From: an uncultured archaeon
GTDB lineage: Archaea > Asgardarchaeota > Thorarchaeia > Thorarchaeales > Thorarchaeaceae
Assembly (NCBI GenBank): GCA_964648855.1
Contig: CAZYLT010000012.1
Coordinates: 30,001 to 62,000, forward strand
Length of the DNA stretch: 32,000 bases
Reading direction: 5' to 3'
Of the stretch, positions 11,639-15,387 are shown in pieces (within the stretch, counting starts at the first letter, position 1; each line of letters begins with the position of its first letter). A program made the translations under genes and the position numbers. The notes beneath the pieces were generated by a model. That model saw only the letters and a list, made by a program, of their open reading frames with translations. It was not told where the DNA came from and did no database searches.

Positions 11639-13558
11639 CTACTGAGTGGATTCGAATTCGAACTTGGTGAACATTTTGTCAAGTTCTTCCAATTGCTTAT
11701 CAATATCTGCGTCCTCATCCTCTTCCTCCGGAGATGATGCCTTACGTTCCAGCTCTTCCTCTTCCGACCCTAAGATACCATAGATCTCCCTGATTGCCTC
11801 ATCCACATCACTCTCGGGTTCGGCTTCCTCGTCAGGTGGAAGTACCTCATCGCTTGAAAATGCTTCGAGAGCTGTATCCAGGTCCTCCCTTGAAGCCCGT
11901 TCTATCTCCTCACTTACAATATCGTCAGCATCTAGAGCTTCTGACAGCAATTCTCTAGCCATCCGAGTCCCGTCAATCATGGCTTCTTCTTCGTCAGGAC
12001 CTCGTGGAAGTTCTTCAGCTCTCTCAAATTCTTTCTCAGCCAGAATTGAAGCATCAGATTCAGCGGGAATTTTCTCTCTCTCTTCCTGGTCTAAAGAAAC
12101 CATATCTGCATCCAAATCGTCTTCTGAAATAGGCTCCTCTGATTCGACGACTTCTACTGGAATCTGTTCGGGTAGGCTTTCTTCGCTTGCAGCAGGTTCT
12201 ATTTCCCATCCCATTTCTTCTGCAGCAATCACGTCAGACTCAGCTGTGTCAACCGGGATTTGCCTTGGCATAGCTTCCTCAGTTGATATCGGTTCTATCT
12301 CCCATTCTTCTTCTACTTCTTTTTCTTCTCTTGCAGATTCTAAGGCAATCTCATCAGGCTCGGCGGTTTCTATTCCTACCTCCTTCGCCCTATCTTCTTC
12401 CGAAGTTGTCTCAACAGTCCATTCCTCATCCATCAGTGGCCTAGGAGCCTCAGGAGGTTTTTCCTCAGCCACTCCCTCTGACTCGGCTATGTCTTCGTCT
12501 TCGATTACCTCCACTACTTCCTCGACTATGATGTAATCATCTGTGGCATCAACAATACGACCGTCTTCATCTACGTAGACTTCTTCAACGACTTCGACCT
12601 CTTCGTATTCTTCCTCCTCTTCAGATAGTCTTCCTTCATCGATTGCGTCTGCTGCACTCTCAGTGGCTTCATCCGTGAATCTTAGCAATTCCTGAGGAGG
12701 TAGATCAGGAAGAGCTACACCCACATACTGAGCTGCAGCATTCATTAGAATCCTAAGCATCTCATCGCGTCTGCTTTTATCAATTGCCACCATTGGATAG
12801 GTTGGGACACCGAGAATCTTCTGTACCACCTCAGGCTTCATTGCATTAGGCTTGTCCTGCTTGTTTGCCAGCGCAAAGACGGGTACTTTGGGAGCATCTC
12901 GTTTGATGAGCTTGAGAATGTCCTTGCTGATAATGACATTCCGAAGTGTCGAGTCACATACCAAGAAAATCACATCAGCACCGTGGAAGTAAAAGCGCCA
13001 GAGGTTTCGGAAACGCTCTTGGCCTGCAAAGTCCCACAAAACAAGGGAATAGTTCCCGAATCTAATATTCTCAACAGTTTCAAGATTAAGAGCAATTGTG
13101 GGCACATACTGAAGAGGCGGTGTATCGCCCAATAGCAAATGGAGTGTGGTTGTCTTTCCAGTACCGCCTTCTCCCACTAGAGCAATTTTGAGCCGGGTAG
13201 TTATGGAGTCCTCAATCAATGTTTCATAGTGATTTGTCACATATTCAAGCCCATCACGTTGAATACGGCTTTTCAGTATCTTCGCAGCAGCCGCTAAATG
13301 GTCCACCAGCGTATGTTCCTGTTCCCCCAAGTCACTCACAAATACCAAAACAAGATCCTTTACAACATCCGCTCCAACGAATTTGTCGTCATCGATACTG
13401 AGGGGCAGATTGGCCAAAGAAACATCATCACTACGAAGATCTTCTCTTGTTTCTATGAACTCATCTAGGCTGTCAGCTGTTACCTCCACTGGCCAGTATT
13501 GACTAGAGGTTAATACCTCCTTACTAGAAATTCTCATGAGGAAGGTGTTATGAATCAT
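11639..13558 (-). CDS. Longin-like N-terminal domain, Arf-like small GTPase and ~340-aa highly acidic low-complexity tail
   Basis: G1 GEGGTGKT, G2 YVPTIALN, G3 WDFAGQERFRNLWRFYF, G4 NKQD. The N-terminal ~120 aa has a beta-beta-helix-beta-beta-beta-helix-helix pattern (longin call is inference). The tail is E/D-rich. Confidence 0.85.
   Translation of the reverse strand: MIHNTFLMRISSKEVLTSSQYWPVEVTADSLDEFIETREDLRSDDVSLANLPLSIDDDKFVGADVVKDLVLVFVSDLGEQEHTLVDHLAAAAKILKSRIQRDGLEYVTNHYETLIEDSITTRLKIALVGEGGTGKTTTLHLLLGDTPPLQYVPTIALNLETVENIRFGNYSLVLWDFAGQERFRNLWRFYFHGADVIFLVCDSTLRNVIISKDILKLIKRDAPKVPVFALANKQDKPNAMKPEVVQKILGVPTYPMVAIDKSRRDEMLRILMNAAAQYVGVALPDLPPQELLRFTDEATESAADAIDEGRLSEEEEEYEEVEVVEEVYVDEDGRIVDATDDYIIVEEVVEVIEDEDIAESEGVAEEKPPEAPRPLMDEEWTVETTSEEDRAKEVGIETAEPDEIALESAREEKEVEEEWEIEPISTEEAMPRQIPVDTAESDVIAAEEMGWEIEPAASEESLPEQIPVEVVESEEPISEDDLDADMVSLDQEEREKIPAESDASILAEKEFERAEELPRGPDEEEAMIDGTRMARELLSEALDADDIVSEEIERASREDLDTALEAFSSDEVLPPDEEAEPESDVDEAIREIYGILGSEEEELERKASSPEEEDEDADIDKQLEELDKMFTKFEFESTQ
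12115..12310 (-). repeat. Degenerate tandem duplication with a 96-nt (32-aa) period inside the acidic tail
   Basis: WEIEPISTEEAMPRQIPVDTAESD versus WEIEPAASEESLPEQIPVEVVESE. The Trp codons start at 12304 and 12208. Confidence 0.85.
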
Positions 13559-13666
13559 TCATCGTCACCAGAGAGGCTTCTTTCCTTTCGCTGCTTTCTT
13601 CTATCTTCACTAATAATATAACTTCCCAGATATGGTCTATTGTATTATTGCCTTGGTACGCATCTA

Positions 13667-14020
13667 TTTTGTTCTTCTTGCGATGAATTCTGGGATTTCA
13701 CACATCTCTCCTGAGAAATCACTAATCTTCTCTCACAAGACAAAAGCCCGAAGGAGGTCCAGCACAAAGTTGGAAACGGAACGGGTTGCCTAAGCAGCCC
13801 CTTCCGCATCCGTGGACACCATCAGCATAAGTGTACGAAAAATTGTGCGAATTTGTGAGGAAAAAACCTCACGTTTACGGGGACCTCGCCAGCAGAATCT
13901 GCTGGTATTTCAGAGGCTTCTCCGTCGGTATGTACTGACGGAAATGGGACCGCGTTAACAAGCGTTTCATATCAAGCCTCTGAATGGGGGATATTGTACA
14001 CCTATACTTCAGGCAAGTAG
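13667..14020 (+). ncRNA. Unidentified large structured RNA; boundaries uncertain, may extend to ~14240
   Basis: At least 9 compatible helices, including a perfect 11-bp stem closing a three-way junction, two long-range helices and a 10/11-bp pseudoknot pairing. G.U wobbles favour the + strand. No credible ORF. Confidence 0.65.
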
Positions 14021-14247
14021 AAACTAATGATGTGAATATATGAATATTCCTCGTTTCACAGAAAGCGTTATTCTGATACAAAATAGATAAGGCGTGTGCA
14101 AAAGTTTCAAAGGAATTCAATATTCCGATGTGTCAATGCCTAGTCCATAGAGTGAATGAAATGGCGCCAACTAAGCATACTAGCACATTTAGAGAGAAGT
14201 CTATTCTCAGAGCTAATGCCGGCTTGAAGAATTGAGATAACTCTGCT

Positions 14248-15387
14248 TCATCTCGGAAAGTTATCGCGCAACAGTCTTAGATGCTGATGAACCAATTCCA
14301 TCATTCTTTCATCATCTGGGTTCTTTTCCAGCTCGGTGACCAAGGTGTTGAGGAAGTACTCAGGGAAGAAAAGCCTGACTCGGATGTCATTGAGCAGAAA
14401 CAACCATTTGTCATACTCACCAGATGGGCCCTTTCGACGTTTTTCTGAGATGATTCGATACTTCTTCAGCATCTGTATCGCTTGTTTGAGCTCTTTCGGC
14501 GGTATGCCCAAAGTTGCCTCAAGTTCGGAAATATTCACCGGTCCTCGTCGCAAAATACTCAGAACGTCATAAGCGTCTGGATCAGCTAATATCTCCGCAA
14601 TAGCAACTGTGTCTTCAGGGGTCTTTTTCCACTCAGTTAGAAATTCCAAGACCTCTGCCTTGTACTCCGCAGCTAACTCTGGGTCAAGAATAGAGCTAGA
14701 GGATTCCATAGATGTCAACGGGGGTGCCCTAAACACCTCTAGGTCCTTAATCATGAAAACACATGATCTACCGATCTCATCTACCCATTCTGTTTTGACG
14801 AGACCAAGCTCTTCGAAGGGGGCTATAATAGAATCAACACTCACGCTAGGAAGGCCTGTGACCATCTTGAGCCATTCTTCCAGATCCTCTTTTGTTATGC
14901 CACCTTTCCATAGTTTGGGGAAGACTGCCCGGGAAACTTCGTCAGAAAATAGACGAGCCAATCGTGATTCATCTGTCATCCCAGCGAGTCTGATGATTCG
15001 GCGATAGGTGTTATCAAGTTCTTCCTGAAGTTCAGCATCCGTCATCGATACGACAGAATTCGTTATGGGAGACACCACAGAGGTAATAGCAGCCTCGTAG
15101 GTCTTTGGGTCTTCTGAGGGTGTCAAAAGCAGGGAGATACAATACTGCTCTTCTTCACGCACTATCCCAGTGTAGTATGATGCAACACTGTATTCTTCTC
15201 CGCCAATTCTCACACTCAACGTTGAGAATCCTGCAGAAGCATCACCCATGGCGTGTGAGGTGAAAATTCGCATGATTTCTGTATTGAGATCTTCCTTGTA
15301 GTAATCAGCAAAATCTGCGGGCACTTTTGCTTTCAGAACTGCCCCTACTTTTGAATCCCAATCTATTAGTAACATCGCTACAGGCAT
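14248..15387 (-). CDS. uDENN/longin-like N-terminal domain with C-terminal winged-helix domain(s)
   Basis: MPVAMLLIDWDSKVGAVLKAKVP resembles the F/W-D...GP.L...P start of uDENN/NPR2-type longins. ILADPDAYDVLSILRRGPVNISELEATLGIP..ELKQAIQMLKKYRII is an ArsR-like wHTH. Confidence 0.65.
   Translation of the reverse strand: MPVAMLLIDWDSKVGAVLKAKVPADFADYYKEDLNTEIMRIFTSHAMGDASAGFSTLSVRIGGEEYSVASYYTGIVREEEQYCISLLLTPSEDPKTYEAAITSVVSPITNSVVSMTDAELQEELDNTYRRIIRLAGMTDESRLARLFSDEVSRAVFPKLWKGGITKEDLEEWLKMVTGLPSVSVDSIIAPFEELGLVKTEWVDEIGRSCVFMIKDLEVFRAPPLTSMESSSSILDPELAAEYKAEVLEFLTEWKKTPEDTVAIAEILADPDAYDVLSILRRGPVNISELEATLGIPPKELKQAIQMLKKYRIISEKRRKGPSGEYDKWLFLLNDIRVRLFFPEYFLNTLVTELEKNPDDERMMELVHQHLRLLRDNFPR

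Follow-up and report, generated by a model that had tools for sequence, protein, structure and literature searches.

We have identified a new family of structured RNA, matching no known family, through a member that lies in a 690-nt gap between two genes on the minus strand of the window (the whole 32,000-nt stretch of thorarchaeal DNA that was analyzed). The family is restricted, as far as searched, to a single family of the Thorarchaeota, and its members are modeled with a conserved fold in which a long helix, P1, encloses two further helices, P2 and P3, and is followed by a 3' hairpin, P4. Our best explanation, to which we assign a probability of about 0.55, is that the RNA is the product of a stand-alone, single-copy gene for a structured noncoding RNA that acts as a ribonucleoprotein (RNP) scaffold or binding platform; the main rival explanation is that it is the leader of the Arf-like GTPase gene that follows it. 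Asgard archaea have, to our knowledge, very few known noncoding RNAs other than rRNA, tRNA, SRP RNA, and RNase P RNA. The RNA described here is wedged between two genes for eukaryote-like regulators, a longin-wHTH protein and a longin-Arf GTPase, and its model, coordinates, and strand provide a handle on a new RNP or regulatory RNA in the archaea most closely related to eukaryotes.

The gap is bounded by the GTPase gene (11639 to 13558, minus strand), whose 639-aa product has an Arf/Roc-type GTPase domain, and by the wHTH gene (14248 to 15387, minus strand), whose 379-aa product has weak winged-helix matches. The N-terminal 250 residues of the latter protein are without a Pfam family match. 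The RNA lies 200 nt past the wHTH stop codon in this genome and ~70 to 300 nt past it in most other genera, with 1,050 nt in G032; the GTPase gene lies 70 to 180 nt downstream of the RNA on the same strand and is its downstream neighbor in nearly all of the genomes examined. A preliminary description of the gap had proposed a large, pseudoknotted RNA transcribed opposite to both genes; its observation has been partly confirmed and its interpretation partly supported. All of the sequences that it quoted are present where it placed them, and the region is indeed structured, since its folding is much better than that of dinucleotide shuffles on both strands (for 13740 to 14010, z = −7.2 on the plus strand and −5.4 on the minus strand); for the minus-strand RNA bounded at 13766 to 14014, the folding z score was −6.6. 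A search of the 690-nt gap for tRNA genes found none. The earlier statement that the gap has no credible open reading frame also holds: an 81-aa minus-strand frame within it is without a Pfam match, and comparison with relatives showed that indels of 1 to 4 nt interrupt the most conserved blocks of the RNA.

Collecting the syntenic gap from relatives, a comparison that the preliminary description had suggested, revealed a conserved element with covariation. In the congener G001, the syntenic stretch is 87% identical over 13763 to 14017. A model built from these two congeners only (R1) gave just weak partial matches of 75 to 90 nt in other genera; all of these matches directly followed the gene orthologous to that for the 379-aa protein, and it was this synteny that led to the family. 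The region downstream of the wHTH orthologue in 30 genomes contained a conserved element of 185 to 250 nt with several fixed blocks. A sequence-only model (R2) was made from 20 of these sequences (alignment A3), and a structural core model (R3) was made from alignment A6, built without this genus. R2 detected one copy per genome in 78 of the 86 genomes of the family, covering 15 of its 16 genera; with filters off, a divergent copy was recovered from the sole genome of the 16th genus (G014), bringing the count to 79 genomes. The R3 search reproduced this distribution, and its match at 13803 to 14012 on the minus strand was the only one in the source genome. The stretch is single-copy in the 3.1-Mb assembly. 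Wherever a genome carries a copy, the RNA is flanked by the wHTH gene on one side and by the Arf-like GTPase gene on the other. Two genomes, G077 and G087, each gave two RNA model matches, on different contigs; both genomes have ~7% contamination, and the doubled copies could represent duplication, strain mixture, or contamination.

In other families, neither R2 nor R3 had a convincing match in 125 genomes of 26 families of the phylum, and no copy was found with filters off beside the wHTH homologues of these families. Among all 16 genera of the RNA-bearing family, identity of the wHTH protein is 83 to 91%; homologues in other families, where several paralogues are often present, are just 24 to 37% identical to it, so that synteny cannot be followed there. 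A pattern scan of contigs, with 16 specified bases, which are too few, returned mostly chance bacterial matches.

The modeled architecture, read 5' to 3' on the minus strand, begins with the predicted transcription start zone and a short 5' lead (14009 to 14016), the start zone being placed there by the archaeal TATA-to-start spacing, ~23 to 26 nt downstream of a TATA-like box. Conservation with the congener ends at ~14017, and the R3 alignment starts at 14012. P1 is a 13-bp helix in the minimum-energy fold, in which the 5' strand, AGUAUAGGUGUAC (13996 to 14008), pairs with the 3' strand, GUACACUUAUGCU (13824 to 13836), and the pairing has covariation support. The preliminary description had noted most of this pairing, as 13827 to 13837 with 13995 to 14005, and had read it as a pseudoknot. 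The pairing is kept in relatives, as the main closing helix; the pseudoknot vanishes because both of the outer helices that it crossed, which are unconserved, are dropped. One of these helices (13754 to 13760 with 13881 to 13887) and the other (13762 to 13767 with 13843 to 13848) have 5' arms that are rewritten in the congener while their 3' partners are identical, indicating that they are chance pairings that reach beyond the conserved RNA. Similarly, a proposed 5' domain (13667 to 13683 with 13732 to 13745) is not kept, its second arm being unconserved in the congener. A block at 13662 to 13691 is near-identical in the two congeners.

Within P1, the junction J1/2 (13985 to 13995) is modeled as an unpaired C-rich word, AUCCCCCA in this genome and UCCCCCGUCA in the family consensus; seed alignment A6 shows no variation in its CCCCGUC, and the tail of the word differs in this genus. 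The 5' strand of P2 (13974 to 13984) pairs with its 3' strand (13909 to 13919) in the minimum-energy fold, with covariation and one U-A to C-G exchange relative to the congener; this helix had been noted before and is kept in relatives. The apical region or loop of P2 holds the first invariant GGUCCC (13946 to 13951), which is unpaired in the folds and kept in nearly all aligned sequences. The outer pairs that had been proposed for 13944 to 13970 are not kept; they would bury this GGUCCC and require G·U pairs on the plus strand. Two previously noted hairpins, one inserted in P2 (13921 to 13942, with a G-C to U-A exchange) and the other at 13889 to 13905, are present in the congener but are confined to this genus. 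A second invariant GGUCCC, conserved in the family, occupies J2/3 (13880 to 13885). P3 (13855 to 13872), another hairpin of the preliminary description that is kept in relatives, is variable in sequence but fixed in place, with a hairpin there in every genus examined. It is followed by J3/1 (13837 to 13854), which contains a conserved word, UUCGCACA here, and then a U-rich tract and is unpaired in the folds; the family word, CUUGCGCAU, is near-invariant across genera. J1/2, the P2 loop, J2/3, and J3/1 with its U tract thus present four near-invariant unpaired words, of which those of J1/2 and J3/1 are partly altered in this genus.

P4 (13772 to 13811) begins in the near-invariant sequence ACGGAUGCGG. 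It forms in 52 of the 57 homologues that were folded and corresponds to the helix noted earlier at 13777 to 13806, which relatives keep. The 3' tail (13737 to 13771) consists of CCAAC, a small C(UUCG)G hairpin, and CUUUUGUCUU, a putative terminator. The same layout of P1, P2, and P3 followed by P4 is the minimum-energy fold in three divergent members, the window copy and members from two other genera (z = −6.6, −3.6, and −4.9). A further pairing, of CCCCGUC with an ACGG that precedes P4, was considered and rejected; inspection by eye showed no compensating change where either side varies. The RNA is ~275 nt long here and 185 to 250 nt long in other genera and does not extend to the upper limit of 550 nt suggested previously.

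Covariation support for the RNA family is strong, as judged from two alignments. Alignment to the structural core model leans toward the structure, whereas alignment by the sequence-only model does not; the latter, structure-blind alignment covered 28 proposed pairs, with controls in which partners were slid by 1 to 3 columns and with 500 shuffles. In the structure-blind alignment, standard pairs occupied 84.7% of cells, compared to at most 54.7% when partners were slid, and 155 cells were changed on both sides, compared to 28 to 49 in the slid controls. None of the 500 shuffles reached the observed values, the one exception being the number of additional pair types, for which 12 of 500 did so. 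In the model-based alignment, 88.8% of cells were paired (30 to 54% with slid partners), there were 230 cells with changes on both sides, and 19 of the 20 modeled pairs were changed on both sides, including seven of the eight in P2; here, too, 500 shuffles failed to match these figures. All 12 modeled P1 pairs were changed on both sides in both alignments. The source genome and its congener differ by two compensatory exchanges.

The preliminary description had assigned the RNA to the plus strand because its imperfect pairs were mostly G·U there. That argument fails when relatives are included: in the structure-blind alignment, the gene strand has 197 G·U cells and 68 A·C cells. For example, the P2 pair 66/187 is G·U in 33 sequences, G-C in 21, and A-U in 11 and is never unpaired, and in the hairpin at 13889 to 13905, the congener carries a G·U on the minus strand that would be an A·C on the plus strand. 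Helix energies likewise favor the gene strand: P1 has its more stable form there in 41 representatives and on the opposite strand in 6 (means, −22.4 and −17.8 kcal/mol), and for P4, among 51 representatives, the division is 48 to 2 (means, −23.7 and −17.7 kcal/mol). Whole-molecule energy was an uninformative test of strand, with a mean difference of −0.3 kcal/mol and a division of 19 to 21 representatives; in the source genome alone, 13740 to 14010 folds at −110.7 kcal/mol on the plus strand and at −101.1 kcal/mol on the minus strand. The helix energies and the G·U and A·C counts do discriminate, and the RNA is therefore read from the minus strand of the window, from ~14014 to ~13740, like both of its neighbor genes. 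Together with a BRE/TATA-like box and a U tract that point to the same strand, this result overturns the antisense assignment; because the RNA is on the strand of the genes, a leader or untranslated region (UTR) role is not dismissible by strand. The correction decides the design of any expression or probing experiment.

Sequence signals around the RNA suggest where its transcript would start and end. The BRE/TATA-like box, GAAACGAGGAAUAUUCAUAUA (14037 to 14057, minus strand; family consensus aaaCYAGRAAGnTTCWTATG), is a putative promoter that is present in 53 of 54 representatives, 39 to 86 nt upstream of CCCCGUC; a relaxed form of its pattern occurs just twice in the 3.1-Mb genome. From its position, the predicted start is ~14014, where conservation with the congener begins. 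At the other end, most members have CCAAC after P4 and then a U- or pyrimidine-rich run. The U tract here (13746 to 13737) follows the small C(UUCG)G hairpin, and the congener has eight U residues in a row at that place; a run of at least four T residues lies within 110 nt of the start of P4 in 21 of 52 representatives, and most of the others are pyrimidine rich. T runs at ~14080 to 14107, upstream of the box, are possible terminators of the wHTH transcript. The GTPase gene is itself preceded by a genus-conserved TATA-like box, 60 to 90 nt before the start codon, and by a GGTGA ribosome-binding site, and these separate signals argue for two transcription units. The start, the end, and the independent transcription of the RNA are thus predicted from conserved sequence signals.

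Several other features of the gap were observed. A block at ~13575 to 13650, near-identical in the two congeners, includes a TATA-like sequence, GTTATATTATTAG (minus strand), that is probably the GTPase gene promoter. At 14058 to 14075 (minus strand), and at the same place in loci L042 to L097, many genera have a semipalindromic word, TTTCGGAAAC, TTTTGAAAAC, or TTTCGAAGAC, which may be a transcription factor site upstream of the box, possibly for the neighboring wHTH protein. On the plus strand, 14020 to 14075 contains a C/D-box-like AUGAUGU…CUGA with a weak Rfam match (E value, 2.5); it overlaps the promoter-like box and was treated as a chance occurrence.

Comparison with known classes of RNA agrees with the earlier view that this is a structured noncoding RNA of no recognized family. 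Rfam 15 yielded no family for the whole window at gathering thresholds, only noise with E values above 2 for the gap at E values of up to 10, and nothing relevant for 18 homologous loci; this covariance model check, which the preliminary description had named as one that could remove the novelty of the RNA, did not do so. No account of this RNA came up in a search of the literature. A structured archaeal RNA of 300 nt would usually be suspected to be SRP or RNase P RNA, and the preliminary description was right to set both aside, since the genome has each of them elsewhere, with scores exceeding the Rfam cutoffs: RNase P RNA (RF00373) at C6:41563-41894 (155 bits) and SRP RNA (RF01857) at C2:49700-50010 (107.8 bits). 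The RNA locus was without a match to either, even at E values of up to 10. A C/D box small RNA (sRNA) was rejected; the only matches were weak ones on the plus strand at 14020 to 14057 (E value, 2.5), the AUGAUG word is absent from the congener, and CUGA occurs in J3/1 of many members but a conserved C box in none. The ACA of an H/ACA sRNA is likewise not conserved, the tail after P4 being CCAAC followed by A, U, C, or G or else CCUAC or CCAAA. For a group I intron, there was no Rfam intron match, and the element is intergenic, is preceded by a promoter-like box of its own, and keeps the same place in 79 genomes.

We postulate that the BRE/TATA-like box would drive the RNA gene and that the U tract would end its transcript; P1, enclosing P2 and P3, and then P4 would form a scaffold that holds the four near-invariant words unpaired. 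The helices may expose these words, in the junctions and the loop, for binding by a dedicated partner, either a protein or possibly a G-rich RNA, and the RNA would then act in trans as an RNP component or binding platform. Such conservation implies that the RNA has a specific partner and that its function is strongly selected for. Two observations fit a stand-alone gene less well: clean runs of four or more T residues are limited to 21 of the 52 representatives, and two of the otherwise invariant words are altered in this genus. The main rival, which we consider possible but distinctly less probable, is that the RNA serves the Arf-like GTPase gene as a cis-acting leader of the riboswitch or attenuator type; in this case, the P1 junction would be the sensor, P4 and the U tract would be the terminator, and read-through would express the gene. 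The position of the RNA, on the strand of the GTPase gene and immediately upstream of it across genera, speaks for a leader, as do the invariant junction nucleotides, which resemble those of aptamers, and the hairpin with a U-rich tail that follows the junction. Moreover, three genera allow pairing of the P1 3' strand with the P4 5' strand (−14 to −18 kcal/mol; z < −1.6), as expected of an antiterminator; however, this alternative pairing is not general, since it has a mean z score of −0.66, reaches significance in 9 of 42 sequences, and is absent here and in four other genera. In addition, the start codon is separated from the RNA by the genus-conserved TATA-like boxes and the GGTGA site, and terminator stems are usually much less conserved in sequence than P4.

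An origin from the 3' UTR of the wHTH gene, by which the RNA would be derived or processed from the upstream transcript and have no promoter of its own, is improbable. The shared strand and the short distance from the wHTH stop codon in this genome and in most other genera are consistent with it, but the conserved BRE/TATA-like box precedes the RNA at a fixed distance, the T runs upstream of that box could already end the wHTH transcript, and the distance grows to 1,050 nt in G032. We give even less credence to the RNA being a U3-like chaperone that acts in trans on pre-rRNA, with J1/2 pairing to UUGGCGGGGGA near position 886 of 16S rRNA, beside the central pseudoknot, and J3/1 pairing to a block ~148 nt upstream of 16S. 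Consensus J1/2 forms a 10-bp duplex at 16S position 886 (−20.6 kcal/mol; matched by 0 of 100 shuffles), and consensus J3/1 forms 10 pairs with the leader (−14.4 kcal/mol; P of ~0.01), in a leader block that is conserved across genera. However, when the J1/2 and J3/1 words of the source genome were compared to its own pre-16S rRNA, they were not significant (P = 0.55 and 0.57); in the comparison of 16S rRNAs and leaders for the J3/1 word across G033, G024, G020, and G019, the last of these keeps the word but has a different leader, without a match. Other G-rich 16S sites score as well in several genomes, C/D boxes are absent, and the hypothesis was conceived after inspection of the sequences. 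Exact genome-wide complements of the invariant words occurred at chance frequency only. The least likely reading is that of the preliminary description, a plus-strand, pseudoknotted RNA antisense to both genes. The slightly better plus-strand fold in the source genome alone and some pairs that are G·U on that strand speak for it, but in relatives, both P1 and P4 have markedly lower stability on the plus strand, where A·C would replace the 197 G·U cells, no conserved promoter-like box lies upstream on that strand, and the outer helices are unconserved. It can be envisioned that an RNP of the Asgard lineage, without a described counterpart, is built around this RNA, for example, as a U3-like chaperone, or that the RNA is a nucleotide-sensing leader that controls the longin-Arf GTPase; we regard this more far-reaching proposal as doubtful.

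The stand-alone RNA that we favor is reminiscent of OLE, raiA, ROOL, and GOLLD, orphan structured noncoding RNAs that were found by comparative genomics. Like these RNAs, it combines a covarying multihelix fold with invariant junction words, occurs as one copy per genome in a narrow range of hosts, and is without an assigned function at discovery; unlike them, it is archaeal, ~185 to 275 nt long, and preceded by a BRE/TATA-like box, and it has no sequence or model similarity to them, none of 20 members having a match in Rfam 15. In its similar size, single copy, and apparent possession of its own promoter, it resembles archaeal SRP and RNase P RNAs. Terminating riboswitches, which are rare in archaea, likewise have a P1-closed multiway junction with invariant nucleotides, a hairpin with a U tract, and a conserved gene downstream on the same strand; however, the thorarchaeal RNA is without a general antiterminator, promoter-like boxes precede the gene, and no ligand class is suggested. 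The repetition of a short unpaired word in loops and junctions (GGUCCC twice, and UCCCCC) recalls the C-rich-motif regulatory sRNAs RsaE and RoxS and protein sponge RNAs such as CsrB, but the thorarchaeal RNA is much larger and more rigid, and its words are not complementary to the local GGTGA site. Any likeness to U3 snoRNA would be in action only, through consensus words that complement 16S rRNA beside the central pseudoknot and a leader block; unlike U3, this RNA has neither C/D nor B/C boxes, and neither this genus nor G019 retains the complementarity.

The rRNA genes themselves yielded further observations. The 16S rRNA gene of the source genome is on a different contig (C19) from the RNA locus, and a 23S rRNA gene was not found in the assembly; the rRNA genes may be unlinked, or the 23S gene may be unassembled. 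The 5' leader of 16S rRNA, 150 to 200 nt upstream of the gene (L098, ~1300 to 1360, on C19 of the source genome; L239 to L256), contains a cross-genus block, …GGUCUAAGAUAUGCUCAACAGUGUGCAGGU…, that is probably part of the processing stem. In three genomes, G009, G031, and G020 (L251, L255, and L256, respectively), the 16S matches span 2.28 to 2.41 kb, compared to ~1.5 kb, so that their small-subunit rRNA genes must contain large insertions, which would be introns or expansion segments.
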